Assembly: GCA_024763435.1 (NCBI GenBank)
Contig: JANTFN010000003.1
Coordinates: 1-32,151, forward strand
DNA length: 32,151 bases
From: Thermodesulfobacteriota bacterium
GTDB taxonomy: Bacteria > Desulfobacterota > S145-22
Reading direction: 5' to 3'
The notes beneath the pieces are model-generated. The model was given only the letters and a program-made list of their open reading frames with translations. It did not search any database and had not been told where the DNA came from. The stretch's first letter is position 1, and each line of letters begins with the position of its first letter. A program made the translations under genes and the position numbers. Positions 11,162 through 29,153 of this stretch are shown in pieces.

Positions 11162-12073
11162 ATGAACAAGGAAATGATGACAACCCGGGATGTGGCGCTT
11201 TATCTTGGCCTGAATGAGAAAAAGATTTACCAGCTCGCGAAAAACAGGGAAATTCCCGCGGCGCGGGTCGGCGGAAAGTGGATTTTTCCCCGCAGCCTGA
11301 TTGACCAGTGGATACATGAAGGCGCGGAGAAGAACCTGAAGGCTGTTGAACCGGAACTTCATCCGCCTCTCTCTGTCATGGGGAGCAATGACATGGCCTG
11401 GGATATCCTCAGCCATATCCTGAAAAACTCGCCTTATAATCTTTTAATTTCCCGCGCGGATGTTGGGAGTGCAGGCGGACTGGTGGCCCTAAACCACAAA
11501 ATGGCTCAGGTTGCCGGGGTACACCTTTTCGACCCGGAAACAGGAACTTATAATATTCCGTTTCTAAAGGATTATCTCCCGGGGAAAAAAATATCTGTGG
11601 TAAACCTTTTTTACCGGGAGCAGGGGCTGATGGCCAGAAAGGGGAATCCGCTGTCTATACAAGGGGTTGAAGACCTTCAGCGGCCGGATGTCCAGTTTAT
11701 CAATCGTCAGAAAGGATCTGGAACGCGGTTGCTTCTGGATTCAACTTTAAAAAAATTAAAGATTGATCCCGCTCAAATCAGGGGATACCTTCGCGAGGTT
11801 GACACACACATGGCTGTCGCGCTGGAAATTATTCGCGGCAAGGCAGATGTTGGAATGGGAATATTTGCCGCGGCACGGGCCCTTGATCTCTATTTTATCT
11901 CCATAAAAAACGAGCGCTATGACCTTGTTATTCCCGGGGAATATATCCAGACCCCGATGGTTGAAATCCTTCTGCATGTGATTAAAACACCGGAATTCCG
12001 GGAAGCCCTTTTGGGATTGGGGGGATATGACCTCAAAGAAACAGGGAAAATAATCTGGGAGGGTATTGTATGA
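11162..12073 (+). CDS. Excisionase-type HTH + molybdate/tungstate PBP-domain transcriptional regulator (TaoR-like architecture)
   Basis: N-terminal MTT.DVA.YL....KIY.L.....IPA.RVGGKW.F; C-terminal GSND, VGS.GGL, AG.HL, REQGL, FINRQ.GSGTR, E.YDL, L.GYD. Confidence 0.9.
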   Translation: MNKEMMTTRDVALYLGLNEKKIYQLAKNREIPAARVGGKWIFPRSLIDQWIHEGAEKNLKAVEPELHPPLSVMGSNDMAWDILSHILKNSPYNLLISRADVGSAGGLVALNHKMAQVAGVHLFDPETGTYNIPFLKDYLPGKKISVVNLFYREQGLMARKGNPLSIQGVEDLQRPDVQFINRQKGSGTRLLLDSTLKKLKIDPAQIRGYLREVDTHMAVALEIIRGKADVGMGIFAAARALDLYFISIKNERYDLVIPGEYIQTPMVEILLHVIKTPEFREALLGLGGYDLKETGKIIWEGIV

Positions 12074-13461
12074 TTGGAAAGGGAAATAATGCCGGAAAAA
12101 CCGGGAGGCTTTATGTACTTATAACGGGCTTGATTATAGCTTTGATGTTGGCCTCTCCCCTTTCGGCAAAAACGCCCAAGCTGACTTTTGGCGCGGAAGT
12201 TCGATTCAGGGGTGAATCCCTGGACAACTTTAATCTGGCGTTCTATGGCCCCAATCCTTCCAAAGGCAAGTCCCATGATCAATTTCTTCTCGGAAGGTTC
12301 CGTGCCGGGTTTGATTATACGCCCAACCAGGTCATTCATCTCGCCTTATGGGGACAGGATGCCCGGGAATGGGGGTATGGGTTTAAAGATAAGGATTTTT
12401 ACAATCCTGTCTTCGGAACGCAACATAACCCCTTTAAAGATGAATTTGAACTCTGGAATACCTATCTGGAGGTAAAAAAACCTTTTGACTGGCCTCTTGC
12501 GGTGAAGGCCGGGAGACAACGGATTTTTTACGGGGACAAACGCGTTTTTGGCCCAGGGCAGTGGGGGAATTCAGGAAAATGGATATGGGACGCGGTTAAG
12601 ATGTCGTTTTTTATTCCGAAGGGGTTTGTGGATGTCTATTATGGGCGTACCATGATCCACCAGCCGACAGAGTTTAGCTTGAATCATCGCCATGGCTTCG
12701 AATCCATCGGGACCTATGCCCACATCACCCTCCCCAAAAGCATGGGGGAGATTGGCGTGGAACCCTTTGCCATGACGAAATACGACAGCCATGACCATTA
12801 CAAGGGAGAAGATGGACGTTACGGAGACCTGAACGCCGCCTACGCGGGGATGCGGGTATTCAAAAAGAATCTCCGAGGATTTGATCTTGATGCCACTTAT
12901 GTGCGGGAGTTTGGAAAGTTAGCCAATGATACAATCCAGGCGTATGGGTATCATCTACTCGCGGCCTACACCGTTACATCCTGTCCCTGGCGCCCGCGGG
13001 TCAGCCTCGAGTATTCGGTTGGATCAGGAGATAAAAATCCGAAGGATGGCACCCGTGGATCCTTCGACGGGGCCTTTGGAGCGCGGGATAAGATGTATGG
13101 ACGGATGAATCTCTTTAAATGGCGGAATATCAGAGACGCTCAGATTAATTTGGAGCTATGGCCGCAAAAGTGGAAATGGTTCTATATCAAAGCGGAGTTC
13201 CATAAGTTCTGGCTGGATGAGGAAAAGGATGGTTGGTCTTTAAACCCGAAACTTTACAGAGACAAAACGGGAAACTCCGGGAATGAAGTGGGCCGGGAGG
13301 TTGACATCGTCTTCAGGTTTAATCTCCCCAAGGGGCACCAGATTCAGGCGGGATATGGCCATTTCTGGCCCGATGAATTTGTCAAAAAACTGGCCTCCAA
13401 CAAACAGGCAGATTGGTTTTTTATTCAGTGGCAATATAAATTTAACTGGAAAATACTATAG
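12070..13461 (+). CDS. Alginate-export (AlgE)-family outer-membrane beta-barrel
   Basis: Signal peptide; R.R.E, QDAR, K.GRQ...YGD.R..G...W.N, SGD, G.EVD, aromatic C-terminal beta-strand. Confidence 0.85.
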   Translation: MIGKGNNAGKTGRLYVLITGLIIALMLASPLSAKTPKLTFGAEVRFRGESLDNFNLAFYGPNPSKGKSHDQFLLGRFRAGFDYTPNQVIHLALWGQDAREWGYGFKDKDFYNPVFGTQHNPFKDEFELWNTYLEVKKPFDWPLAVKAGRQRIFYGDKRVFGPGQWGNSGKWIWDAVKMSFFIPKGFVDVYYGRTMIHQPTEFSLNHRHGFESIGTYAHITLPKSMGEIGVEPFAMTKYDSHDHYKGEDGRYGDLNAAYAGMRVFKKNLRGFDLDATYVREFGKLANDTIQAYGYHLLAAYTVTSCPWRPRVSLEYSVGSGDKNPKDGTRGSFDGAFGARDKMYGRMNLFKWRNIRDAQINLELWPQKWKWFYIKAEFHKFWLDEEKDGWSLNPKLYRDKTGNSGNEVGREVDIVFRFNLPKGHQIQAGYGHFWPDEFVKKLASNKQADWFFIQWQYKFNWKIL

Positions 13462-13543
13462 GGCTGAGGACTGAGAAAAACACGCATCCGAATCACCTGT
13501 TAACACTTATGAATGCATTATAATGAGAGGGAGATATTGTAAA

Positions 13544-15346
13544 ATGGAAAGATTACGCGTGAAACACAGTTGGTTGATTTTGTTTATTATTGGAGGTGTT
13601 CTTTTTTTAAATTCCATGGCGTTTGCGCAGGGTAAACCCACTGCTGTTTATGGCGAAGGACAGGCGAGTTTTGTGGTGGCCACGGGCAGCCCGGGGGCGC
13701 TGGGATTGCTCAAGGCCCTGGCAGAACCGTTCTGCAAGGCGAATAACTGTCGCTTGATATGGTTCAAGAAGGGGAGCGGCGCTTCCCTTGCCTTTATGAA
13801 GAAGGGAAAATGCGACGTGATTATGGTCCATGCCCCCGCGGCGGAGAAAAAGGCGGTGGCCGAAGGCTGGGCGGTCCATCGCACGCTCCTTGGCGCGAAT
13901 GAGTTTTTTATTGTGGGCCCGAAATCGGATCCCGCCGGGATCCGAAAGGCCAGATCGGCCAAGGAAGCCTACGCGATGATCGCGAAGGCAAAAGCGACCT
14001 TCTTCTCCAGGGGTGACAATTCCGGGACCAACAAACGGGAACTGAAGATATGGAAATGGGCGGGAATCAAGCCCTCGGGTCGCTGGTATGTCATTACGCA
14101 TGGATTTATGGGGCCGACCCTGATGCGCGCGGATAAAGAAATGGGATATTTTATGACGGATAACAGCACTTACTATGTTAAAAAAGCGAAATTGGAACGC
14201 ATGGTGCCGCTGTTCAAGGGAGACCCCATCCTGACGAACGTTTATCACGCCCTGATACCGAATTCCGAGAAATACCCCAAACGAAATACCAAACTGGCCC
14301 TCAAATTTATTACGTTTGTTGCCTCCCCGACCGGCCAGAAAATCATTCACACCTTTGGGGAGAAAAGATATGGCCGTCCGCTTTACCGGGACGCGTCGGT
14401 CGCGAAAGAATTGGAAAAAAACCTGGGAGGCATGCCCGGGGCCGCGAAAATCAAGGGAAAGGTAATTATCTTTCACGCGGGTAGTTTGACTCTCCCCTTA
14501 CTCATGATGGAAAAGGCCTTTGAGAAAAGCCATCCCGGGGTGGATATTGTCCGGGAAGCGGCGGGCAGTCGGACCTGTGCCCGAAAAATTGTGGATTTGA
14601 AGCGTCCCTGTGACCTGATGTTCTCGGCCGATGATTCCGTTATCGACAAATTTCTCGTTCCCGCCCATGCCAATTTCAACATCCGTTTCGCGAGCAACCA
14701 GATTGTCCTGTGTTATACAAACCAAAGCCGTTTTCATGACAAACTGACGGCTAAGAACTGGTACAAGATACTTCTCGACAAAAAGGTCATCTGGGGGCAG
14801 GCGGACCCGAATGCCGATCCCTGTGGATACCGCGCCCTGATGGTTATGCAGCTCGCCGAAAAATATTATAAAATAAAGGGATTATACAAGGCGCTTCTGG
14901 CGAATCGCCCCCTCAGAAACGTCCGGCCGAAATCTGTGGAATTGATTGTCTTGCTCCAGACGGGCGACATGGATTACGCGTGGGAGTACCGCTCCGTGGC
15001 CGTCCAGCATAAACTGAAATTCCTCTCGCTCCCTGAAAAAATCAATCTGGGAAGCACCGATGATAACGATTTTTACAAACAGGCGGCGGTTGAAATATCG
15101 GGGAAAAAACCGGGGGCCAAAATAAAAAAAATCGGCAAGGCCATTACCTACGGCGCTACGCTCCTGAAAAAAACGAAAAATAAGGCCGCCGCACTGGCCT
15201 TTCTAAATTTTGTTCTTAACCCGGACAAGGGATTGAAAATTCTGAAAAAGATGGGACAGCCCCCTGTCGTTCCGGCATGGGTCACATCCAAAGCGATGAA
15301 ACAGAAGATTCCAGCACAGTTACGGCAGTGGGTTGTGGTTAAATAA
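13544..15346 (+). CDS. Fused periplasmic tungstate/molybdate-binding protein: TupA-like domain + WtpA-like domain
   Basis: N-half [36 protein letters not shown] (TupA-like); C-half [38 protein letters not shown] (WtpA-like); one signal peptide. Confidence 0.88.
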
Positions 15347-16930: not shown

Positions 16931-17932
16931 ATGCTTATTATTATTTTTGGATTCTTGTTCGGTGCGGTGTTGCAATACGCAAGACTCAATAAATTCGATG
17001 TCATCAGCGGCATGGCTACCCTCGATGATTATGCCGTGGCCAAGGCCATCGCTTTTGCCATTGGGCTGGGGGCCATCCTGATCAATATTGAGATCGGGCT
17101 GGGTCTTGCCGCCTACCATGTAAAACCCATGGTTCTGGGTGGTATTATGATAGGTGGCATCATCTTTGGAATCGGCATGGCTATTCTGGGATACTGCCCC
17201 GGGACGCTTGCTATCTCCCTCGGCGAAGGTGCTATGGACGCGTTGCTTGGCGTGGTTGGCGGGCTCCTGGGAGGGTTGGTTTATACACTTGTACTGCCTT
17301 TCATAAAACCCATTCTGGGCCCGAACCTGGGGAAAATTTCCCTGAATTCTCTTATGGGGGCGGGTATAGCCTTCTACATTGTTGCCATTATTGTCGGCCT
17401 CATTTTTATGGCCATTGCGTTCTGGCTGAACGCGATTGAAAAAGCAAGAAATAACAAATGGTTATATTCAGGAATTGGTCTGGCTATTCTGGAGGTCATC
17501 ATCTTTTCAAAGGCAACGACCAATCGTCCTATCGGTGCTTCCACCATGTATCCTTATCTCGCAGATCTCTTGTCCAGTGTAACGCATAATGCCTATTTTG
17601 CCAAAATTCAGATCCCGGGATACTGGGAATTTAAATTTCTAATAGGATCTTTCCTTGCCGGCTTCGTTGGCTCTCTTGTGAGGAGGGATTTCAAAGTGGT
17701 GTTGATTCACGAGCGCTGGAAACAAAACAAGGGGACTTCCAGCATCCAGAGAGTTATCTGGTCTTTTATCGGTGGTTTTATTCTGATTTTCGGCGCCAGA
17801 ATGGCCGGGGGTTGCACGAGCGGGCACGTCCTGTCCGGCGGCATGCAGCTGGCCATCAGCAGCCTGGTTTTCGGCGTCTTCGTTTTCGCGGGATTACTTG
17901 TGACGGGCAAGCTGTTTTATAAAAAGCCCTGA
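16931..17932 (+). CDS. YeeE/YedE-family sulfur-compound (thiosulfate) transporter, two modules in one chain
   Basis: GG..FG.GM...GYCPGT and FGARMAGGCTSGH motifs, many TM helices; GGAGG SD. Confidence 0.88.
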   Translation: MLIIIFGFLFGAVLQYARLNKFDVISGMATLDDYAVAKAIAFAIGLGAILINIEIGLGLAAYHVKPMVLGGIMIGGIIFGIGMAILGYCPGTLAISLGEGAMDALLGVVGGLLGGLVYTLVLPFIKPILGPNLGKISLNSLMGAGIAFYIVAIIVGLIFMAIAFWLNAIEKARNNKWLYSGIGLAILEVIIFSKATTNRPIGASTMYPYLADLLSSVTHNAYFAKIQIPGYWEFKFLIGSFLAGFVGSLVRRDFKVVLIHERWKQNKGTSSIQRVIWSFIGGFILIFGARMAGGCTSGHVLSGGMQLAISSLVFGVFVFAGLLVTGKLFYKKP

Positions 17933-18078: not shown

Positions 18079-20766
18079 TTACCATGTTTGACTGATCCAG
18101 TGCGGGCAATCTCCCTTGTCGATGCTAAGATTAATTTTTTGACTTTTCACGGGGGCATCTGTTAGATAAATTGTTTTGGTATCTTTTGACACGCCATTTT
18201 GCGTGTAGGTAAATAGCGAAATATTTAGTTTTGGGGACAACTTCCCGTAACACAGGCAGCCGGGGCCAAAAGGAGTTCCATCAATACCCTGCTTGCATTC
18301 CTTGAATACCCAAAACAGCGCTTCCACGCCGGAAATACCGACCGTGGGGAGGGTCATGACATAACTTATCTTGCCTTTGGGAAATGATGTCGTTTTGTAC
18401 TGGATGGGGGAAGAATTTCCCCTGCCGGTGAAGGAAAAGGTGTCTTTGACTGTTTTGGGTTCAATCCAGAATTTCCAATGACTGTGCCAGGTTTGTGGGG
18501 CGCTCGCACCGAGACGATAGGGGGTTGCAACAGTAAAAGTCAAATATTGTGCCCCGAATTGAGTATGCCCATAATCACCGAGGACAAAGGCGGAATTTGA
18601 GTTGACTTCCATAAAGACTTTTATCCATTTTACGCTTCCGGTTGACGAGGCGCTGAACTGCCATTTGACGTCCTTGATTTTGAATGTTGCATTTTTTGGT
18701 TTCTGGTCATTGGTGATTGAAAAAGCACTGCTTTCGATCTGGGCGCTGCGGTCCGATTTTTCGATGAGCGCGGTATATTTTCCCTGGGGTGTGTCTGCTA
18801 AGACCGCAATCGAGGCCACGCCGCTATAGGGGTTGATAATCAGCTCTTCGGCAATCTTCTTGTGGCTGGCATTCCAAAGCGAAATATAAAGGTTTGTGTT
18901 TTGCAAAGCCTGTTTGTCCAAAACAGTCCACCTAACGTTGTGCCAGCTGCCGGCTTTCCATACCGTTGTTTTGATGGGTTCGGTTATTTTAAGGGTATTA
19001 AAGTAAGCCGGGGCTCTATGGGAATAGGAGATTGAAGGACCGCTGGTTTTTAAAGTAAAAGGCGCACTGTCGCCGGAGACAGTCTTGTTGGATGCTTCAA
19101 CACGCGCGATGAATTGTCCGCTATAAAACTTGGCGGGGATTTTCCAGAGAAGTTCTCCTGTGTTGATAATTGTATTATCGCCCCCTGAGCCGCTACTGAT
19201 TATTGAAAAGGGGGAAGTTTTACCATCCGGATAAATCGTAATTTTTACCTTCGTGGTTTTGCCAAGCCCTATACTGTACCAGCGAATGGGTAATGTCTGG
19301 CCGGACTTCCAGATTGAACCGGATTTTGGGGACCAGACGTTTATGAACGCCGATTCTATGATTTTCGGGGGTAATGGCTTTGCAATGTAAAAAGTATCAC
19401 TTTCACCGTAAATCTTGCTGTTGTTTGAGGCTGAAACGCGGATAAAATAGGTTCCCGCGGGTATTGTCGAAGGTACCGTCCAGGGGAAGGTGAAGCTCAA
19501 AGCGTTAATAGAGCTTTTTATTGTTTTGGTTGTTTTCTTGGTTGTAGCATTTTTAAGCTTGATATTTACCTTATTAATGCTGGCTCCCAAAACAATCCAT
19601 TTTATTTTATGGGTTGTTTTGTAACGCCATACATTATTTTTCATGGGGGATGATATGCCTATACCGTTAGAAGTCCCCATGAAAATTTCGGGTAAAGGAA
19701 GAAAAGCCAGTGGTTTTCTCGCTGCGTAGGGCAATGGTCTTTTCGGTAAAGGCCCAATTCCTGGCTTTGCGATTGAGACGTTTCCCGCGGCAGCCGGTGC
19801 GCGATGCGTTGCCGGCACGTTGCCTGGAATGGTGAAATGTTTGCTATCACTGAAAACCAGGTTATCCAGGGTCTGCACCCGCACTATGTACTTGCCTGTG
19901 CGTTTGATCCTGGAAAGCGACAGACTGAAATGTCCATTGTTGGAAGCGTTTTTCGTCAGCCAGGCCCCATGGCCGTCAGCGGCCAGACGAGATTGTCCAG
20001 CCGGATAAAGCAGAATTTTGATACGGGTATTCATTCTGCCCTTTTTAGACCAGCGGATGTCCAGAAACTTCCCTCTCCAGCCTTTGACCCCGGGATGCTC
20101 CGAGCCCTTCATGGCCAGGGTTTCGATTTCCGCTTTGACATTATAGATCTTCCCCAGCACGTTCCTGACAGGTTTCGCCCTCTCGATATGGGGAGTCCGG
20201 GCGGGCCCTGTTATCCTGACCCCCTGGATCGGTGCGGCAACAATAATCTGAACCGAGGTGCTGTTGTTCTGTGGTCTTATGTCTTCCTGCCCTTTCTTCG
20301 GGATGACCGCAACCTTGACGGTGAAACTCCCCGGCTTTTTAACCTTGAAGGTGGTCTTAACGTCATGTGACTTTCCGGCATCAAGTTTGAGTTTATGGTT
20401 CTTGTCTTTGGTGATCTTCTTTCCGTTCAGGTAGAAGCGCACCACGGCATCCTTGAAGGTCAGGAGACCTGTGTTTTGAATGGTTGCCGTAAAGGTAAGG
20501 GGTTTTCCTATCTTTGGCTTACTGGGAGAGAAGGTGAGTTTCTGGACACTGAGATCACCTTTCAAAGTCAAGGGCCTGGCTTGATGGATTTTCTGGCGGG
20601 CAGGTTGCGCCCGGTGGGATTGCTGCCCGGCAGGGTGACTGTTCCCGGTCCTTTCAGGGGGCGGCAACTGAAGCTGCTGGATGGCAACTGCGGTTGAGCC
20701 ATAGAAGCAGAAGGCTATAAGGGTGAAAGCAAAAATTGCCTGTACGATATATGTCTTCCTTTTCAT
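18079..20766 (-). CDS. Secreted multi-Ig-like protein E (CARDB + ~4 Ser/Thr-rich-family Ig-like modules); lacks the Cys repeat
   Basis: Signal peptide; DLSV....FSP..P..G....TATIQN.G...NN (CARDB); repeated SP.....W..G....I.W ... S..F.I modules; AAGGAGG SD. Confidence 0.85.
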   Translation of the reverse strand: MKRKTYIVQAIFAFTLIAFCFYGSTAVAIQQLQLPPPERTGNSHPAGQQSHRAQPARQKIHQARPLTLKGDLSVQKLTFSPSKPKIGKPLTFTATIQNTGLLTFKDAVVRFYLNGKKITKDKNHKLKLDAGKSHDVKTTFKVKKPGSFTVKVAVIPKKGQEDIRPQNNSTSVQIIVAAPIQGVRITGPARTPHIERAKPVRNVLGKIYNVKAEIETLAMKGSEHPGVKGWRGKFLDIRWSKKGRMNTRIKILLYPAGQSRLAADGHGAWLTKNASNNGHFSLSLSRIKRTGKYIVRVQTLDNLVFSDSKHFTIPGNVPATHRAPAAAGNVSIAKPGIGPLPKRPLPYAARKPLAFLPLPEIFMGTSNGIGISSPMKNNVWRYKTTHKIKWIVLGASINKVNIKLKNATTKKTTKTIKSSINALSFTFPWTVPSTIPAGTYFIRVSASNNSKIYGESDTFYIAKPLPPKIIESAFINVWSPKSGSIWKSGQTLPIRWYSIGLGKTTKVKITIYPDGKTSPFSIISSGSGGDNTIINTGELLWKIPAKFYSGQFIARVEASNKTVSGDSAPFTLKTSGPSISYSHRAPAYFNTLKITEPIKTTVWKAGSWHNVRWTVLDKQALQNTNLYISLWNASHKKIAEELIINPYSGVASIAVLADTPQGKYTALIEKSDRSAQIESSAFSITNDQKPKNATFKIKDVKWQFSASSTGSVKWIKVFMEVNSNSAFVLGDYGHTQFGAQYLTFTVATPYRLGASAPQTWHSHWKFWIEPKTVKDTFSFTGRGNSSPIQYKTTSFPKGKISYVMTLPTVGISGVEALFWVFKECKQGIDGTPFGPGCLCYGKLSPKLNISLFTYTQNGVSKDTKTIYLTDAPVKSQKINLSIDKGDCPHWISQTW

Positions 20767-20857
20767 GACCTGTCCCCTCCTTTTTTCATGCTGAGATTAT
20801 ACCGGACCATTTTCTATGATCCTTTTTTTAGTAGTTACAGGATGGCACGCACCACCT

Positions 20858-23371
20858 TCACCAACAACTTCTGGCTTCTGAACAGGTGAGGGGGTAGAAG
20901 TATACCGTATCATCAAAATCTCTGTAGGTATGAAGCCTCTTATAGATATAACCTTTTACACAGTTGTTGGCTTCATTGGTTTCCATAATAAGATTATCAG
21001 GGTCAATTCTGGCATGGTACTCCCGGACTCCCGGCATGATCCAGTACTCCTGGCGTTGATCGCATTTATATCCGTCTCCCCCAGTATAGGGATCCAGCTC
21101 AGGGATGTCGTAGCACTTCCCCCCGCACTTCTCTATCCAGATGCAAAGTTTTGACGGGGGCGACCGGACAGTCCCCATGTTCCTTACGTAGACAGGGATT
21201 CTGACATGTCTGTTCAGCTTTGCCCAAATTTCACTACATATACAAACGACAAGGTCAGGCAGATTGTTTGCTCTGTGGGCGGAGAAAGTTTTACGGTCTT
21301 CGTTGTTAGATTCATTGGATTCATCGACATCATTGTTGGTATCAATCTCAAGGGTGTGGTGATATTCTCCAGCAGCAGGATAATTGTATGATTTTTCCAG
21401 AAGATAGTGTACCCCGTAGTTAAGGGAAGGAATGTTTATGTCATCAAATTCCTTTTGAAATCTCGGTCCGCTTATGGCCAGCTTTGCCTTCGAAGGGCCC
21501 GCGCTTCCCAGGGAATTGTTTTCAATCAAGGCCTTTACCGTGATTAATCCCTGTGTTTCATCCTCTTCTATTTCCATGTTCCTGATGATCAAGTCTGGTT
21601 TGTAGGTGACAATTTCAAACCGGTCACTGACTGTCAGGTAATTCCAGTCTCCCTTTCTTATTTCGATTCTATAATTGCCTGACGGAATTTCAGGGACCTG
21701 CCAGGTAAAGCTGGTGCCGTGAAGTTCTTCACTTATTAATTCATACCGGACACCCATGAGCAGGACAAAAAAACCTTCCTCAGAATTGTGGAAGTTGTCC
21801 GTCCACTTGAGAGTGTACGTGTTGCCCTGGACGAGAATCGATCCCTTGCGGGGAAAGATTACCATGTTCGGCGGCGGGATATATTCTTCTGTGGCTATCT
21901 GCTGACATGTCATTGTATCGGACCAGGTATTATCTTCGTCGGATTCATCAATCCTGTGGTTCGCATCTGCCTCAATCCTGATTTCCTTGCCGCATGGAGC
22001 GGAAGCAAAAGTGTAAGAAAGAAGTTCTGTTGATACACTTGACGGTAAAGGAGGATTGACGTGCTGGGAATGCACAAGGCTGTTTCCGAACCAGATATGA
22101 ACGTTGAAAGCATCTAATACGGTGAGTGTGCCAATATTTTTTACCTTGTAAGATAATGTTACGGCATCGCCGGGTGAAAAATACCGGGGTAAAAAACTGA
22201 CCTCTGTTACGATAAGGTTTGGACCATCACCAGGCGAAAACAGTTTGCCGGGCAAATGCTTCCCTTCTGCCTGGAGGATTGAAGGCTTTGAAGCCTGCAT
22301 TGTCGGATGCGTTTTCGGGGATATGATTGTCGGCTTAAAGGCTTTCGCTTTAACTTTCTTAAAGGCGACCTGGATTTTTTCACTTTTTTTCAGCACAAGT
22401 TCAGTATCAAAATCCAGCATGCCGCCCGGTTTAGCCAAAAGCTTCTTGGGATCAATGCCTTTCAATCGCCAGCTCTTTGCCCTGCCACCATGGTGGAGGA
22501 CCAGCTTTCCATGCCGGTAATCCCCGGCAGTCAGTTTCCCTTTCCCCCTGTTCCGGACACGGATATGAAGCGTGCCGCCCTTGAGATAAATCCTCACGAT
22601 GGAAAGCAGGGGAGGTGCCTGGGCCAGAAGCGTTGTTTTCTTGGATGCCGCCGGGGCCGGAGAGTACTTCCTGACACTCAGGGTCTTTTCCGCCTCGGCC
22701 TTCTTTTTGAAAAACCGCCCACGTCTCGCCAGGCATTTCCTGTAGGTGGTTTCAACGATCCGGCCATTTAACAGGCACCATCCCATGGGTTCACATACCC
22801 TGGAAGCTGCTTGTTTGTCTTTGAAAAATATGCCCTTCTTTTTGAAACAGTCTCCCTTCTTCATAAGAGAAACCTTGTGGTTGATGCAGCAATATCCTGG
22901 CTGATTCATCTCGCAGTAAAGAAGCGCAGCGCCTTTTTTTTCAAAGAACCGCCCTTTTGCCTCCTGACACTTTCCCCTGACGGTTTTGACGACCTTCCCG
23001 TTGATGCAGCAATATCCCGGCTGATTGATCTCGCAATAGTGGGTCGCCGCTGCCTTATTTTCAAAGAACAGGCCATTTATTCCCTGACAGTCTTCCTTTT
23101 TTAATGAAGCGACCTTGCCATCTGTACAGCACCATCCTTTCGTCTGGGCATTGAGATACGCCTTCGCGGAATTCCTGTCTTTGAAGAAATGCCCCTTGCA
23201 CCTGGACCGGGTGCTTTTGAAGATCTTACCATCCGCGCAGCACCAGCCGGTGACGTGGCTACCCTTTTTAGTCTTTGCGGCTTGTTTGGCATAGGAAGAG
23301 AGAACACTTCCCGCAGTTATCAGCAATGCCGCCAACAGGAAGGTTATCAGGTGTTTTGTCTGTTTTTTTAT
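20858..23371 (-). CDS. Secreted Cys-repeat protein A (5 repeats; CARDB and Ig-like C-terminus); probable ATA start
   Basis: ATA at 23371 follows AAGGAGGA and gives IKKQTKHLITFLLAALL, collinear with MKNQAKHLIIFLLVALL of paralogue D; three CARDB-like modules (PNL.V, PDL.I, PDLVV ... E..E.N). Confidence 0.85.
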   Translation of the reverse strand: MKKQTKHLITFLLAALLITAGSVLSSYAKQAAKTKKGSHVTGWCCADGKIFKSTRSRCKGHFFKDRNSAKAYLNAQTKGWCCTDGKVASLKKEDCQGINGLFFENKAAATHYCEINQPGYCCINGKVVKTVRGKCQEAKGRFFEKKGAALLYCEMNQPGYCCINHKVSLMKKGDCFKKKGIFFKDKQAASRVCEPMGWCLLNGRIVETTYRKCLARRGRFFKKKAEAEKTLSVRKYSPAPAASKKTTLLAQAPPLLSIVRIYLKGGTLHIRVRNRGKGKLTAGDYRHGKLVLHHGGRAKSWRLKGIDPKKLLAKPGGMLDFDTELVLKKSEKIQVAFKKVKAKAFKPTIISPKTHPTMQASKPSILQAEGKHLPGKLFSPGDGPNLIVTEVSFLPRYFSPGDAVTLSYKVKNIGTLTVLDAFNVHIWFGNSLVHSQHVNPPLPSSVSTELLSYTFASAPCGKEIRIEADANHRIDESDEDNTWSDTMTCQQIATEEYIPPPNMVIFPRKGSILVQGNTYTLKWTDNFHNSEEGFFVLLMGVRYELISEELHGTSFTWQVPEIPSGNYRIEIRKGDWNYLTVSDRFEIVTYKPDLIIRNMEIEEDETQGLITVKALIENNSLGSAGPSKAKLAISGPRFQKEFDDINIPSLNYGVHYLLEKSYNYPAAGEYHHTLEIDTNNDVDESNESNNEDRKTFSAHRANNLPDLVVCICSEIWAKLNRHVRIPVYVRNMGTVRSPPSKLCIWIEKCGGKCYDIPELDPYTGGDGYKCDQRQEYWIMPGVREYHARIDPDNLIMETNEANNCVKGYIYKRLHTYRDFDDTVYFYPLTCSEARSCW
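22679..23248 (-). repeat. 5 x ~40-aa G[WY]CC Cys-rich repeat in protein A
   Basis: G[WY]C[CL]x[DN]G[KR]x7-C-x4-G-x-FF-x5-A-x3-C repeated. Confidence 0.92.
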
Positions 23372-23403
23372 AACCTATCCTCCTTCCATTTAGTTTATCA
23401 AAG

Positions 23404-25566
23404 CTACAACGTGAGACAGGAATACTCCCTCTCCCTATCAATAGCTCTCCAGGTGATGTGACAATCATTATTCGAGGTGCTTGTTTCGGGTATCTTGTTG
23501 TGCTGATCAAGAATAACGTGAAAATCGAGATCGTCGCCCCTGTGTGAATCATTATAAATAAAGGTATATATTTTTTCCTGGTGCCCGCCGATCCCATCCT
23601 CAATCCAGCCGGCCATATCAAGGCCCCGGAGATCAATTCTGATTCGCCGCCAGGTTGTTCCAGCTTCTCGGTTTTCTACGGTGATCTGAATAACAAGCTG
23701 TCGTTGCCCGCTCACTGTTCGACGGGAAATTCTGACATGGGATGTGTGAATGTCGATCTCGGGATGTTCACTCTCATCGCCGGGAGTGAACGTGATACCG
23801 GCTGCGTCATTATTGCCTGAACTGTTGGTAACGGTTATTTCGGCAGGTCGATTTTCTCCGGCATAAAGTCTGTCGGTAGGATCTCCGTAAGGATCATCCA
23901 TGGTGTCCGAAAGCTGCATCCTAATCCGGGTGTTATTCCAACTGATAATATTGACCCTGTAAGCGTATCTGTCACCCGGGACAGAAAATGTTAATTGACC
24001 CGGGGAGTCTCCAAAGTTCCTCCCGCGTATCGTAAGCTCCTGGAGAGGTGAAATTTCTCTCTTGGAAAGGCGATCGATACGTGGAACCATCGGCTGAATG
24101 GTGCAGACATATCTGGGACCTTCTTCGCCACTGTAATAGTAAGGTGTCTCGCTGGGTCCACCCGGTCCCGAAGCGATAAAGGTTCCGGGTGCCGGCGGTT
24201 CGACCCGGGCAGGTTTGAGCCAGATCACAGTCTCTTTTGCCGACCGGCCGATGGCTTCTCCCATGGATATCGGAACGATGCAGCGGACACGCCCTTGCGT
24301 CCATTCGGTAATCTCGCAGGAAAAAGTCGCATCCGGCAGGGCAATGACCACATGGCCTTCGTTTCTCCCAAAATCGTGGCCGTAAATGGACAGATTCCCC
24401 CCGACAGCGACCGGATGGTTGACCGATGTAATCCTGGCCGGAAACCCGGGCTCGGGGAGTGATGGTGCCTGCGCAGTCATCCCCGCATTAGATCCGGCAA
24501 CTCTTCGTTCTGTGGTCATGCGCGAATTCTGTAATGCCTTGTTGGATTGTTGAGAGGGAGCTATTTTCCTTTTAAAATAGTCGGTTTTTACTGTTGGCAT
24601 AATCTGCAAAGCACTTGACCTGCTGGCAACAGGGATGAGCAAAGCAGTTTTCTTCGCTTCACCGGGAAGGTTTGAAAATGACGTCTTGATCCTTGCGCGC
24701 CGGGTCAACTTGAGTCCGGTATCGAAATCCACGCTTTTGCCGGGGGTGAGCGCCCCCCTGGGATCGACCTTGCCCAAAGTCCAGGTCTTGTTCTTCGCGC
24801 CAAATGACAGAATAAGGCGGCCCTTGTCGTAATGCTTGCGCGTAAACTTCCCTTTGCCCTTGTTTTTGACCCGGACATAGATGGTGCCGTTTCTGAGAAA
24901 AATCTTCTCCACGGAAAGCAGGGGAGAGAGAGTGGACTTCCCTGATGTCCCCGGACCGGAAGAGGGTTTCTGCTTCTGTGTTGCCTGGCGCAGGGCCTTT
25001 TGAGCTTCCGCTTTCTTGGTGAAAAAACGCCCCCTTCTCGTCAGGCAGATCTTGCGGGTGGTTTCAAAAATCCGGCCATTAAACAAACACCAGCCCTTGC
25101 AGGCCGCGGCGGCTTTTTCCCTGCCTGTGAAGAACTTCCCTCCCTTGTCCTGACAGCCCCCTTTGGTCATCCTTGAGACTTTTCCATCCAGGCAGCAGTA
25201 CCCGGGGGTCTGGGCGTCGCAGTAGTCATTGGCGTCATTCTGGGTTGTGAAGAACTTCCCTCCTCTTATTTTGCAATTGCCTTTGGTTATGTTGGTAACC
25301 TTTCTATCCGCGCAGCACCAGCCTTTTGTCTGGGCATCGAGATACGCCTTCGCGGAGTTCCTGTCTTTGAAGAAATGCCCCTTATGTTCTCGACAGTAGG
25401 AACTGGTACTTTTGATGATCTTGCCTTTCGCGTAGCACCAGCCGACTATTTGACCGCCCTTTTTCCCTTTCGATGCCTGTTTGGCGTAGGAAGAGATGGC
25501 AAATGCGGAGACGACCAGTAATGCTGTGAAAAGAAAGAATATTGCATGTTTTGTTCTAGGGTTCAT
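23404..25566 (-). CDS. Secreted Cys-repeat protein B (4 repeats; two IPT/TIG-like domains + CARDB-like end)
   Basis: Signal peptide ending SSYA; RITSV...G..LSIYG.DFG and PRI..LS......LTIRG.NFG; D..N.I.E....NN. Confidence 0.9.
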   Translation of the reverse strand: MNPRTKHAIFFLFTALLVVSAFAISSYAKQASKGKKGGQIVGWCYAKGKIIKSTSSYCREHKGHFFKDRNSAKAYLDAQTKGWCCADRKVTNITKGNCKIRGGKFFTTQNDANDYCDAQTPGYCCLDGKVSRMTKGGCQDKGGKFFTGREKAAAACKGWCLFNGRIFETTRKICLTRRGRFFTKKAEAQKALRQATQKQKPSSGPGTSGKSTLSPLLSVEKIFLRNGTIYVRVKNKGKGKFTRKHYDKGRLILSFGAKNKTWTLGKVDPRGALTPGKSVDFDTGLKLTRRARIKTSFSNLPGEAKKTALLIPVASRSSALQIMPTVKTDYFKRKIAPSQQSNKALQNSRMTTERRVAGSNAGMTAQAPSLPEPGFPARITSVNHPVAVGGNLSIYGHDFGRNEGHVVIALPDATFSCEITEWTQGRVRCIVPISMGEAIGRSAKETVIWLKPARVEPPAPGTFIASGPGGPSETPYYYSGEEGPRYVCTIQPMVPRIDRLSKREISPLQELTIRGRNFGDSPGQLTFSVPGDRYAYRVNIISWNNTRIRMQLSDTMDDPYGDPTDRLYAGENRPAEITVTNSSGNNDAAGITFTPGDESEHPEIDIHTSHVRISRRTVSGQRQLVIQITVENREAGTTWRRIRIDLRGLDMAGWIEDGIGGHQEKIYTFIYNDSHRGDDLDFHVILDQHNKIPETSTSNNDCHITWRAIDREREYSCLTL
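24991..25443 (-). repeat. 4 x G[WY]CC Cys-rich repeat in protein B
   Basis: Same consensus as in A. Confidence 0.92.
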
Positions 25567-25605
25567 GGTAATTCCCCTCCTTTTTTTATGTTGCCGGTTT
25601 TTTAC

Positions 25606-25645
25606 TCTTTATAAGTAAGTGTCAAAATCACCGAAAAAGTTCATT
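25606..25645 (-). promoter_or_regulatory. Conserved 40-bp upstream element, copy 1
   Basis: 38/40 identical to 31947-31986; ~40 bp upstream of the ATG of B. Confidence 0.7.
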
Positions 25646-26111
25646 CCTCTGTGAAATTAAATTTTTCATGTCTAAATGAAGATTTAACAATTTAAATTCC
25701 CATAAAAAGTTTCCCCTGTAGGGGATCTATTTTTTTCTCCGGAAGAAGGAAAATATTTCCCCCTGTTTTTCTAATACAAGTAAAAATGTCAAAAGGCCCT
25801 TGTTTCTAAACCAGGGCACAACGGAGAAAAATCAAAAAAAGGGAGAATACACCAGGAGTTTTCCAGCGATAGCATAGTCTGCGGCCTGTAACGCGATATC
25901 TCACCGGAAACGCATACCTTAAAGATGATGTCTGTTGTTGGACCATTACGTGAATCTCTAAATTATAGGTTCTCATAAACAATAACATTGTTTTAATATC
26001 ATGTCAAAGTCCTGGCAGTGCTTAACGGCATACGTAAAGGGAAAACTAAAGCGTGTAAATAAAATTAAGTTCATATCGAGAAAGCCCCTTTTTGTTGTTG
26101 GCTAACGCTTG

Positions 26112-28877
26112 TTATTCGATGTAGAAAAAATCACTATAGGCTGTTACGCTGGGACAATTATCAAGCTCGAGGCGCAACCTGTATCTCCCGGTAGGAAGCG
26201 CGCCAGGCCCGCCCATGTTTCCCGCCCCACTGTCGCCTCCTGCCATCGTTACCCCATAAGACGCATCGTAACAGGAAGAGCCGATGACCCACCGAAAGCC
26301 TATTGTCGAAGACACCATAATTCTATAATTAAATGGTAGGTGTCGCGCTATGCAATCATAGTCTCTCCCGTCAGAACTGAGGTAAAGAGAGGCGGTTGCA
26401 GTGGGACAGGGATGGGGGCAGTATGGTGAATTGTCCCACACAATATCCACCCTGTCACCACTGGAGAAACGTCTCCTTGAGCCGGAGAAACCAAGTGTTA
26501 TTGCTGGTTGCTCGATGCGAAACTCCTCGCTTTCCCCGTAAATTCTGGGATCGGTTCTACTTTCAATGCGGATTTTGTACCCAGCTCCCAAGTATATGTC
26601 ACCTCTGCAATCACCACCGATTATCCAGGGGTGATTAGTCAGGTCAATATGTGATAGCGCTGCAATATTTTCAAGGATTGTTTTTATGCGTCTCCCACGA
26701 TTCATCAAGATTGCGTTGATCCTTTCAGGCCTAAAATTATAATGGCAGTGAATGGTTGGGGTGGAACCCAGAGACAGGGTTTCTCCATCTACCGAAACTT
26801 CCATAGGTGGGACAACGCTGAAAGAATGATCACTTTGATCATCAATCAGGGTCCCCCCGGTGATTATTTTGATAGTGTAGTCATCTCCCTCTTCGTAAGA
26901 GCCCGAGACATCATAGTTTACTGTACAGGTATAGGCATTGGCATTGGGACCCGGGGCATCTGAATCAAGTACACAATGGGCGTCTGTTTCATAGATTGTA
27001 TCCAAAATTCGCCCGTTTTTCATCAGTTGTATGAAGAAGTTCGGCAAAGCATCGCCGGGCATGGCAGAATAGTAACGCCATGAAATCGCCTGTCTGCTTC
27101 CTTTGGGCCACAATTCACCGCCGTTGGGGGAGAGCACACTAATACCATAAGCGCGCGTAGTTGATCCTGCGTCCCTGATCCCGCGAGTAAGATAAAAGGG
27201 CTTAGAAGAACCGTGAGATTCATTTTCTCCAACAAAGCGGACTCGGTTAAAAAAAGTCATGACATAAGGGCCCCCTTCCTGGAGATCATCGGGAAGGGTA
27301 CAATCAAGGATAAGGCTTCGCCGATCATCACTCAGAGACACAATAGTGCAAGGCAAGAAACGCCAAACTCCCATCATGGTTTCCGATTGCGATTGCAGGT
27401 GAATCCGTTTCTCCAGTTCATCTCCGGGGGGGCTTCGGAATGAAGGAAATTCCGGATCGGGAATAGAGAGGTAGATTGTCACATGCTCATTGGCAAGGTA
27501 AATTTGTTTCCTTGGTTCAATAGAAACTAACATTCCATGAGGGGCATAAGCATGCATCTCCGGGGGAATCACCCAGCCAATTTGAAAATCATCACTCACA
27601 CCATAGATGGCAGCAGTTGCTCGAACCATTACTGTATAGTGCCGGTTGGAAGGCACGTCTGCTGGAACCGGAAGTTCGACGCGCATTTCTCTTGACGGGA
27701 GCGGAATGACTGAGACGTCAGCGGTGGCAACGATTGTGTCTCCATTCCTAAGGGTCACTTCGGAAATCGGGAGCGGTTCTCTGCTTTCCTCAAAACTAAA
27801 ATGCACTTCGATGGTGTCGCCGGGCATAAAATGATTGGTGGATGAAGGCAGGGAAACATGAATTCCCCGATCAATAAAGAGGGGATTGTGTTTGCCCGGC
27901 TTACGGATGAGGGAAGGCAGTTTTCCCTGAAGCTTGGCGGGTGTCACGCCTGCCGCACGGGATAATGGAGCAACGCTGGTAACACGTCTGGTAAAAACCT
28001 TATGTTTTCCTTCTTTTTGAGTCAGTACTTTCGATGGTCCGAGTCGTACCGTCTTGAATCCTGCTATCCTGACCTTTTTAAAGGTTATCTGGAATTGGAT
28101 TATTTCTCTTTTTTTCAGCACAAGCCCCGTATCAAAGCTCATCTTTCCGCCCGGTTTAGTTAAAAGTCTTTTAAGATCAATCTGCTGTAAGCGCCACGTA
28201 TTTATCTTGCCGCTATAACGGAGGACAAGTTTGCCCTGTTTGTAATCCCGGGCGGTCAGCTTCCCTTTTCCTTTATTCTGGAGACGGATATGGACGGTGC
28301 CGCCCTTAAGATAGATCCGGGCTACGGAAAGCAGGGGGAAGATAGAAGGCTTGGCTGGTGCCTTGCTTGGAACCAAAAGGGACGAGGGAGCCTGCTTCCC
28401 GGACTTTGCCAGATGCAGGGCCTTTTCAGCTTCGGCTTTCTTCGTGAAAAACCGCCCCCGTCGCGTCACGCAGAGCTTTTTTGTACTCTCGAAAATCCGG
28501 TTGGTTGACAGGCACCAGCCTTTCAGTTCACAAGCTGAAGTGGCTTTGGTTTTGTCTGTAAAGAATTTTCCTTTCTTTTTCAGGCAGTTCCCCTTATTCG
28601 AGGAAACCACCTTGCCATTCAGGCAGCAGTATCCGGGGATCTGGCTATCGCAATAGCTCACAGCGGCCTTGTGGGATGTAAAGAAGTGTCCCTTATGCTT
28701 TAGACACATCGAAAGGGTACTTTTGAAGATCTTGCCGCCCGCGCAGCACCAGCCGATAGTATGGCTACCCTTTTTCCCTGAAGGCGTCTTCATGGCGTAG
28801 GAAGAGATGGCAAATACGAAGACGACCAGTAAGGCTGTGAAAAGAGAAAATATTGCATGTTTTGTTCTGGGGTTCAT
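26112..28877 (-). CDS. Secreted Cys-repeat protein C (3 repeats; ~5 Ig-like modules)
   Basis: Signal peptide ending SSYA; VLSPNGGE.W..GS...ISW module; recurrent YG.S..F.I module ends. Confidence 0.9.
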   Translation of the reverse strand: MNPRTKHAIFSLFTALLVVFVFAISSYAMKTPSGKKGSHTIGWCCAGGKIFKSTLSMCLKHKGHFFTSHKAAVSYCDSQIPGYCCLNGKVVSSNKGNCLKKKGKFFTDKTKATSACELKGWCLSTNRIFESTKKLCVTRRGRFFTKKAEAEKALHLAKSGKQAPSSLLVPSKAPAKPSIFPLLSVARIYLKGGTVHIRLQNKGKGKLTARDYKQGKLVLRYSGKINTWRLQQIDLKRLLTKPGGKMSFDTGLVLKKREIIQFQITFKKVRIAGFKTVRLGPSKVLTQKEGKHKVFTRRVTSVAPLSRAAGVTPAKLQGKLPSLIRKPGKHNPLFIDRGIHVSLPSSTNHFMPGDTIEVHFSFEESREPLPISEVTLRNGDTIVATADVSVIPLPSREMRVELPVPADVPSNRHYTVMVRATAAIYGVSDDFQIGWVIPPEMHAYAPHGMLVSIEPRKQIYLANEHVTIYLSIPDPEFPSFRSPPGDELEKRIHLQSQSETMMGVWRFLPCTIVSLSDDRRSLILDCTLPDDLQEGGPYVMTFFNRVRFVGENESHGSSKPFYLTRGIRDAGSTTRAYGISVLSPNGGELWPKGSRQAISWRYYSAMPGDALPNFFIQLMKNGRILDTIYETDAHCVLDSDAPGPNANAYTCTVNYDVSGSYEEGDDYTIKIITGGTLIDDQSDHSFSVVPPMEVSVDGETLSLGSTPTIHCHYNFRPERINAILMNRGRRIKTILENIAALSHIDLTNHPWIIGGDCRGDIYLGAGYKIRIESRTDPRIYGESEEFRIEQPAITLGFSGSRRRFSSGDRVDIVWDNSPYCPHPCPTATASLYLSSDGRDYDCIARHLPFNYRIMVSSTIGFRWVIGSSCYDASYGVTMAGGDSGAGNMGGPGALPTGRYRLRLELDNCPSVTAYSDFFYIE
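28416..28754 (-). repeat. 3 x G[WY]CC Cys-rich repeat in protein C
   Basis: Same consensus as in A. Confidence 0.92.
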
Positions 28878-29062
28878 GGCAATTTCCCTCCTGTTGCAAG
28901 CTTGAATGTTAACATTTTTGAACTCAACCTGTTTGGCTCGGGGCTTCTTTTCATGACAGTGATGGTTTTGTCGATGTCGGTCTGTTTGGTTTTCGCTATG
29001 CCCAAAAGCCCCATAAACAGGAAACGCAATACAGTTATTGCCGGAATGACAATTTTTCTCAC
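28874..29062 (-). CDS. Small ORF or gene relic between D and C
   Basis: GTG start, basic then hydrophobic N-terminus (MRKIVIPAITVLRFLFMGLLGIA), stop overlaps the start of C (ATGA); no recognisable domain. Confidence 0.25.
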   Translation of the reverse strand: MRKIVIPAITVLRFLFMGLLGIAKTKQTDIDKTITVMKRSPEPNRLSSKMLTFKLATGGKLP

Positions 29063-29153
29063 AGGGTCACCTTTAGGGGTTGTTGTTTTTCGACACCTGC
29101 GAACAAGATAAGAGAAGTTTCTCCTCCCTTATTTTTCTGATTGGATTTCCATC

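Follow-up and report, generated by a model that had tools for sequence, protein, structure and literature searches.

A single-chain fusion of a TupA-like sister-clade module and a bacterial-type WtpA in a Thermodesulfobacteriota bacterium

Tungsten uptake has been described in terms of three separate ATP-binding cassette (ABC) systems, Mod, Wtp and Tup, each with one binding protein. In the accessible text of PMC5517513, the site of TupA is formed by Thr9-11, Ser12, His59, Arg118, Thr124 and Asp170, with TTTS as the family motif, and this motif is carried by the structures 3lr1, 3muq and 3kn3 as well as by the TupA of Desulfovibrio alaskensis G20 (DaG20; 5my5). For Pyrococcus furiosus WtpA, the carboxylate ligands are given as Asp160 and Glu218 in the available part of PMC10221389, and an equivalent Asp/Glu pair is given for an Acidithiobacillus protein in an excerpt of PMC11350598. 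Described here is a gene that joins a TupA-like module to a WtpA in one chain. It lies at positions 13544–15346 (+) of the window, a stretch of 32,151 nucleotides (contig JANTFN010000003.1 of assembly GCA_024763435.1, positions 1 to 32,151) from a metagenome-assembled genome of a Thermodesulfobacteriota bacterium (G000; 1.94 Mb in 285 contigs, 79% complete). The fusion is real, recurrent and apparently undescribed, and its more interesting half would appear to be the N-terminal module, which belongs to an uncharacterised sister clade of TupA that partners canonical tungsten/molybdenum (W/Mo) binding proteins. If this module has a ligand of its own, or hands metal on, it would represent an unrecognised uptake step in tungsten-dependent anaerobes. 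No paper describing a TupA-WtpA fusion or the sister clade was found in a literature search with thin coverage of subscription journals, and such fusions go unmentioned in the accessible parts of PMC6147048 and 10.1101/2024.07.23.604723, two comparative surveys in which Mod, Wtp and Tup are each handled as a system of its own; their supplementary homologue tables might contain fused proteins.

The product of the gene is a single exported protein of the periplasm, ~63 kDa in size, in which a flexible linker of ~13 residues joins two complete type-II binding-protein modules. The full open frame (13523–15346, +) begins at an upstream in-frame ATG at 13523 and encodes 607 aa, and all residue numbers refer to this frame, also where the start is taken as ATG 13544. 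The latter, which yields a protein of 600 aa and had been chosen in a preliminary description of the gene, is the likely translation start because a GGGAG lies ~10 nt upstream of it and the corresponding Met8 forms a nearly invariant first column in the alignment of homologues. Residues 8–35 (13544–13627, +) read as a Sec-type signal peptide that ends in NSMAFA, is followed by QGKP and lacks a lipobox Cys; neither the Pfam scan nor the structural model gave a membrane domain in the protein.

Pfam placed PBP_like_2 at residues 44–269 and SBP_bac_11 at residues 316–578, within an N module at residues 36–295 (13628–14407, +) and a C module at residues 314–607 (14462–15343, +). The C half (residues 306–607) passes both NCBIfam models of WtpA, with 382.1 bits against NF003196 (equivalog cut-off 355) and 329.8 bits against TIGR03730 (cut-off 242.75), and its closest solved structure is Archaeoglobus ModA/WtpA 2onk_E (E 2e-61), with 3cfz and 3k6u also matched. 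The closest solved structures to the N half are Geobacter TupA 3lr1 (E 1e-51) and Desulfovibrio TupA 5my5. Comparison of the N half with the C half by BLASTP gave E = 17 and hence no detectable similarity, and the two halves therefore belong to different families. The initial proposal, that two different families of W/Mo binding proteins are joined in a single chain behind one signal peptide, is supported by the Pfam, NCBIfam and PDB matches together with this comparison, and the motifs named at that stage lie where they had been placed.

An AlphaFold2 model, built from an alignment of 120 rows and read without coordinates, has a mean predicted local distance difference test score (pLDDT) of 93.5. 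Beyond the signal peptide, whose helix at residues 10–33 was modelled at a lower pLDDT of 72–78, the sole weak stretch is the interdomain linker (residues 301–313; 14423–14461, +), in which residues 301–310 average 60 against 87–98 on both sides. Given a predicted template modelling score (pTM) of 0.64 for the full-length model, it suggests two well-folded modules whose mutual orientation is not confidently fixed.

The origin of the window in a metagenome-assembled genome of 285 contigs would be compatible with an assembly chimera or a gene pair joined by a frameshift, as would the low coverage of the junction in two sequencing runs (X2 and X3), neither of which gave a contig across 14394–14535, although a gap of this origin carries no evidential weight. 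Both belong to the same study as run X1, which covers the whole stretch and is not independent, since it may be the source of the window DNA. In run X4, which comes from a different study, a contig of 1596 nt spans 13733–15328 unbroken; it differs at 88 positions and has two 1-nt indels that compensate each other, and therefore a related strain carries the same fusion. Dozens of full-length homologues are also present in other, independent assemblies, at 42–94% identity; among the carriers are three contigs from Thermodesulfobacteriota or unclassified metagenome-assembled genomes and three genomes of the same family. The reading frame runs through without a break, and confidence in the model is high to either side of the junction. 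The junction, raised at first as a possible sequencing artefact, is thus real, and the X4 contig and the homologues leave a chimera with practically no chance of being the explanation.

The N module had been called TupA-like, and in terms of fold this holds: PBP_like_2 and the TupA structures are its closest matches, with ~35–45% identity by eye over the aligned region to TupA proteins including those of Geobacter sulfurreducens (3LR1), D. alaskensis G20 (5MY5), Campylobacter and Eubacterium. Membership of TupA itself does not hold. By its sequence the N module is assigned to a well-separated sister clade, named here the ATGSP clade after the motif at residues 53–57 (13679–13693, +), because it fails the TupA cut-off and separates from TupA in the tree. 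Its score against the TupA model NF041772 is 122.8 bits, below the cut-off of 400, and the stand-alone ATGSP proteins P0121, P0122 and P0126 also fall short of it with 111–190 bits. A search with the N module alone against 1.84 billion representative proteins gave 3779 matches at E <= 0.001, of which the top matches all carry [AS]TGSP[GY]xLGL, the motif turning to TTTS at ~45% identity and below. When 165 TupA-like domains were placed in a midpoint-rooted FastTree tree, those with the motif made up one side of the root (51 versus 114), and in a second, better-modelled tree of 65 rows the ATGSP clade splits from the eight canonical TupA rows with a Shimodaira-Hasegawa-like approximate likelihood ratio test (SH-aLRT) support of 100. 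None of the PDB matches is a solved structure from within the ATGSP clade, and the nearest solved ones carry TTTS.

The motif had been noted as TGSP in place of TTTS. It is indeed altered, although the register was off by one: HMMER aligns TTTS to A53-T54-G55-S56, so that the metal-pointing Ser of TupA is kept. In the same alignments, the equivalents of TupA Ser12, His59, Arg118, Thr124 and Asp170 are Ser56, His103, Arg163, Thr169 and Asp213. A VHAP motif is located at 13826–13837, and SRGDNSGT (residues 162–169; 14006–14029, +) contains the equivalents of Arg118 and Thr124. Thr54, Ser56, His103, Arg163, Ser167, Gly168 and Asp213 are each kept at >=85% in both clades, and the N module keeps the anion-binding core of TupA, consisting of Thr54, Ser56, His103, Arg163, Thr169 and Asp213. 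The two clades differ (ATGSP/TupA) at positions 53 (A/T), 55 (G/T), 82 (K/A), 195 (F/G), 210 (F/T), 211 (M/L), 243 (A/V) and 288 (Y/F), with Gly55 in 98% of the ATGSP clade where 91% of TupA has Thr. Positions 53, 55, 82, 195, 210 and 211 sit at strand-to-helix turns of the model that bear the named site residues, and the clade-specific changes would fall in all five pocket loops and probably line the pocket.

Loss of ligand binding by the N module, which would leave it a structural spacer or a contact to the porin or envelope, might be read from its TupA score and the absence of TTTS, and ATGSP genes are often near genes for outer-membrane channels (AlgE-type, Porin_O_P or TonB-dependent receptor). 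This is very improbable given that the equivalents of Ser12, His59, Arg118 and Asp170 are kept at >=85% in both clades and that members of the clade are found in archaea, where an outer membrane is lacking. Relative to TupA, the pocket of the ATGSP clade is short of two Thr hydroxyls and has acquired two Phe, one Met and one Lys, and as such would suit a larger, weaker hydrogen-bond-accepting anion. The clade could then be a distinct class of periplasmic or surface receptor for W/Mo species poorly handled by TupA, WtpA or ModA, passing the metal to a canonical partner or permease. Such a species would most plausibly be thiotungstate or thiomolybdate, given the sulfidic habitats of the Thermodesulfobacteriota and ANME-1 carriers. 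In the accessible text of PMC11484787, no bioavailable source of Mo other than molybdate is known, and tetrathiomolybdate is used without an identified uptake component, and it is because thiomolybdate uptake in sulfidic settings is there given no dedicated component that a thiolated oxyanion is put forward. A receptor class of this kind is an unlikely proposal; a purified ATGSP module would make the question of Mo and W acquisition in sulfidic water directly testable.

The C module aligns over its full length with P. furiosus WtpA and with the ModA/WtpA of Archaeoglobus fulgidus (ModBC-A complex, PDB 2ONK/2ONS), and differs from both in sitting behind another binding module, in a gene away from wtpBC, the permease and ATPase genes that usually accompany wtpA. 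The DPCGYR motif (residues 432–437; 14816–14833, +) retains the Asp that aligns with the metal ligand of the archaeal DPCGYR, and this Asp432 is invariant in all 123 WtpA domains compared. The archaeal Glu ligand column, to judge from the Asp-to-Glu spacings, would be residue 471 within RPKSVEL (residues 468–474; 14924–14944, +), a position occupied by Ser in the C module and in 110/123 domains, with Glu only in 8 archaeal-type sequences. Two further on, Glu473 is found in 106/123. The preliminary description had the WtpA-like half keeping DPCGYR and EYRSVA; both are present, although Glu488 of EYRSVA (residues 488–493; 14984–15001, +) is a mark of the bacterial subfamily (116/123), being Ile in 6 archaeal-type sequences and in the solved archaeal WtpAs. 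Columns 471 and 488 (nt 14933–14935 and 14984–14986) covary, with Glu471/Ile488 in the archaeal type against Ser471/Glu488 in the bacterial one, which suggests that the second carboxylate ligand has moved in the bacterial WtpA subfamily, where Glu473 and Glu488 are conserved instead. Octahedral coordination in the C module is plausible. The locus thus offers a bacterial WtpA subfamily whose Glu ligand appears moved.

Within the window, the fused gene stands third in a set of three genes of the same orientation and is followed by a convergent methyltransferase gene. The first of the three (11162–12073, +) encodes a one-component regulator with an HTH_17 domain (52.8 bits, residues 5–53) and a PBP_like domain (232.5 bits, residues 90–275), an architecture described for the tungsten-related regulator TaoR in the available part of PMC11980592; the likeness to TaoR is one of domains. 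The regulator stop overlaps by 4 nt the start of a gene (12070–13461, +) for a 463-aa porin of the AlgE/alginate-export type, an outer-membrane beta-barrel (Pfam Alginate_exp, 143.7 bits). Homologous regulators are found beside ATGSP or WtpA genes at four other loci (L004, L005, L067 and L075), and the same porin, at 59–81% identity, is directly upstream of fused or unfused binding-protein genes at seven (L002, L004, L006, L036, L038, L060 and L066), with a distant homologue (35%) directly downstream of an ATGSP gene at L076. The window contains no ABC permease or ATPase gene. An Rfam scan of the whole window returned no family at threshold, and therefore no molybdenum cofactor riboswitch upstream of the fused gene; promoter and terminator scans returned counts not above shuffled controls.

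In the 79%-complete assembly, the fused gene is the only WtpA/TupA-like gene, no ModA was detected, and the best TupB match reaches 31 bits against a cut-off of 320. A wtpB-wtpC pair is located on another contig, C76 (L029; 21–1148 and 1063–1905, −; WtpB 286 bits, WtpC 355 bits), where its neighbours are a PfpI/DJ-1 gene and an Hsp20 gene in divergent orientation, with no binding-protein gene adjoining. The organism looks strongly tungsten-dependent, with seven AFOR_N (AOR-family) genes above the Pfam cut-off on contigs C212, C81, C67, C43, C63, C110 and C42. Three fusion-carrying relatives of the same family, 91–96% complete, agree with this inventory: none of the three has a TupB match at E <= 1e-5, and in each a single wtpBC pair is located on a contig other than that of the fusion, with no adjoining binding-protein gene in the short stretches examined. 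That no tupBC was found in the genome or in these near-complete relatives is a further difference from described TupA systems. A UPF0014 (FetB-like) permease gene with an ABC ATPase gene is found convergent directly downstream of the fusion gene in two close relatives (L002 3944–5393 and L003 1746–3229). As a candidate for the missing permease it was dropped, being confined to these two loci, absent from the window and attributable to close-relative synteny.

From the observed architecture, clade membership, gene context and genome inventory, we infer a ligand, a docking partner and a transfer between sites as follows. The C module would deliver to WtpBC, and the ATGSP module would be an accessory second oxyanion site feeding the WtpA/WtpBC route; this is the most likely reading, and its chance is put at about even. 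In the periplasm behind the porin encoded immediately upstream, the ATGSP module would capture tungstate, or a W/Mo species poorly bound by the primary site, and feed the metal into the WtpA/WtpBC route. The WtpA module would dock on the WtpB/WtpC encoded on C76 and in this manner provide the tungsten for seven or more AOR-family enzymes. Porin and TaoR-like regulator would complete an outer-membrane-to-periplasm front end for tungsten supply, and on this view the fusion itself merely ties together two partners whose genes are neighbours in a close relative. The roles proposed at first, namely sorting or buffering, or the binding of another oxyanion at the variant site, are also possible; what bears on them is context, with one transporter (WtpBC), no TupBC found, a porin and a TaoR-like regulator.

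A periplasmic buffer or sequestration protein uncoupled from any importer would instead hold or sort W/Mo behind the porin, for example by keeping excess from the cell. This would fit a gene that is unlinked to any permease gene here, in the relatives and in two archaeal loci, and that sits with a porin and a regulator of a metal-sensing type. Against it, no protein of WtpA/TupA/ModA type other than the fused one was found in the genome, which has an orphan wtpBC and seven AOR-family genes. Something must serve that transporter. The same genes, unfused, lie ~2 kb from wtpBC on the same strand in a relative (L066), and a buffer is accordingly improbable.

This relative, L066 (G185:C67), is the closest unfused one, with an N module 79% identical to that of the query and nested within the fused subclade of the query (support 99). 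The order of its genes is porin, ATGSP, WtpA, DUF364, an opposite-strand gene of no assigned family, WtpB and WtpC. Because ATGSP and WtpA are neighbouring genes there, the gene in the window looks like a fusion of two adjacent genes. The DUF364/DUF4213 gene between wtpA and wtpBC of L066 (4904–5611) has a putative role in heavy-metal chelation.

Across 401 genomes sampled from the phylum, 33 have a match at >=49% identity, six of them in open frames of ~580–630 codons. Of these loci, 27 were surveyed, one per genome and all outside the family of the window. In 18 of the 27 the ATGSP module either has a canonical TupA or WtpA gene next to it or in its vicinity, or is fused to WtpA: 13 adjoin a TTTS-type tupA or lie within ~2 kb of one, 10 of them accompanied by tupB- and tupC-like genes, while four are beside or near wtpA and one is fused to WtpA. 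No transporter gene is nearby in six, of which one adjoins a formate-dehydrogenase-like gene and one a xanthine-dehydrogenase-type gene, and the contig is too short to judge in the remaining three. Two genomes outside the survey (G303 and G379) each have a second, TupA-level match within 1–3 kb. The Tup-linked ATGSP proteins fall mostly in one derived subclade (support 96).

These arrangements bear on a second explanation, in which the two modules would be tandem docking modules with different substrates or affinity ranges that compete for the same WtpBC, as in GlnPQ or as two proteins sharing a permease. A stand-alone ATGSP gene is usually directly upstream of tupA-tupB-tupC, the usual layout of two binding proteins with one permease; a Tup-linked subclade would fit co-adaptation to the type of permease, and the pocket substitutions suggest a different specificity. 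However, members of the same clade would need to dock on two permease families, TupB and WtpB. Fusion proteins add to this: tandem WtpA modules were not seen, whereas ATGSP modules can be doubled, and deletion variants always keep WtpA. Tandem docking is nearly as likely as an accessory role, and taken by itself is a possible but doubtful account.

Domain order was surveyed in 268 retrieved proteins and the query, with T denoting a TupA-like module and W a WtpA. T-W was found in 28 proteins (query included), W-T in 10, W-T-T in four, a T fragment followed by W in five and T-T in one; W-W fusions numbered 0. In all, ~40 related cluster representatives contain both modules, in both orders and some as triples. 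The W-T and W-T-T forms include proteins labelled at source as Methanophagaceae (ANME-1) and Methanosarcinales. Two of the T-W proteins, P0040 and P0148, have a genuine TupA module with TTTS, and the N-truncated P0192 groups with them on the tree. Since both the domain order and the kind of T module come in two versions, a TupA-superfamily module must have been joined to WtpA independently at least three times. The ATGSP module is also joined to a TTTS TupA (P0109), a ModA-like SBP_bac_11 (P0133) and an NMT1-like binding domain (P0067). In several proteins (L005 5431–6648, L006 1463–2599, P0022, P0025 and P0029) the N module has been largely lost in frame, and the signal peptide, an N stub and the whole WtpA are kept. 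The fusion had been reported as unfamiliar, which agrees with the outcome of the literature search; the TupA-like/WtpA architecture is nonetheless recurrent and, though uncharacterised, not rare in metagenomes. The nearest Protein Atlas clusters are single-domain (289–332 aa) and no fused cluster of >=50 members came up among them, which is no measure of rarity or novelty. The ATGSP clade as a whole is a fourth recurring player in bacteria and archaea, found beside or fused to WtpA, TupA or ModA-like proteins.

An accessory role for the ATGSP module, rather than a second docking module, is weakly favoured by the fact that WtpA is always single while ATGSP can be doubled, by the retention of WtpA in the deletion variants and by the occurrence of the ATGSP clade with two different permease families. 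Several observations weigh on the other side. The association with both Tup and Wtp permeases would equally fit a second docking-competent binding protein, and the pTM and the low-confidence linker give no sign of a fixed interface for hand-off between the sites. The link to WtpBC was made by elimination in a 79%-complete assembly, and both the WtpB and the WtpC match fall below their equivalog cut-offs (286 versus 340 and 355 versus 440 bits). The six surveyed loci with no transporter gene nearby count in the same direction, as do two archaeal W-T loci with no wtpBC in the flanks examined; at two loci of the same scan that have a single-domain wtpA, wtpB comes directly after it. The oxyanion ligand of the ATGSP clade is predicted from conserved residues only, and Ser at the archaeal Glu ligand column makes the coordination chemistry of the C module uncertain. 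A predicted complex of the ATGSP module (residues 36–300) with two copies of the WtpB from the same genome scored 0.00 and carries no weight either way.

Accessory or paired periplasmic binding proteins are known from other uptake systems, with Sbp and CysP sharing CysTWA and ZinT assisting ZnuA. As in those pairs, a second periplasmic binding protein would be encoded with the primary one and work beside it for the same transporter; those pairs are unfused and experimentally studied, whereas the ATGSP clade is known here from sequences. In GlnPQ, the binding domains are of one family and fused to a membrane domain, while the modules here are of two families, soluble and separate from the permease; the likeness is in two binding domains with different predicted ligand sites in one polypeptide (10.1101/2020.12.19.423572, accessible part). 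The two sites in one chain also make the protein a natural scaffold with which W/Mo might be sensed or recovered.

Several ATGSP loci have further features. At L065 (G284:C1, 5856–12424), a TonB-dependent receptor gene is followed by an ATGSP module fused to an Oxidored_molyb (sulfite-oxidase-like) domain with a weak match (35.3 bits, cut-off 24), a small LysR-type HTH gene, tupA and tupB-/tupC-like genes. L071 (G019:C33, 6734–12499) contains TupA-type, ATGSP and TupA-type genes, a gene for a 496-aa Porin_O_P (OprO/P-like anion porin) and tupB-/tupC-like genes, and the layout of L074 resembles it, an outer-membrane anion channel thus being placed inside a tungstate operon. Beside the stand-alone ATGSP gene of L068 (G337:C1, 4702–7536, −), two adjacent open reading frames (ORFs), one of 399 aa and one of 528 aa, correspond to the N and C parts of a formate dehydrogenase-type molybdopterin oxidoreductase, and the break between them could be a selenocysteine codon. 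An AioX-like sensor role, in which the binding protein would signal to a kinase, was dropped since no histidine kinase gene is beside the ATGSP genes of the 27 surveyed loci; one of them, L080, carries a CheB/CheR-PAS protein.

Elsewhere in the window, a gene for a Sulf_transp (YeeE/YedE-like sulfur transport) membrane protein lies at 16931–17932 (+), just past the convergent methyltransferase gene. Further downstream, a run of five very large ORFs of 720–921 aa (18079–31910, −) contains CARDB, Kre9/KNH-like Ig or TIG domains. Their products resemble a family of proteins that are secreted or displayed on the surface, and one of them (18079–20766, −) begins like a signal peptide.

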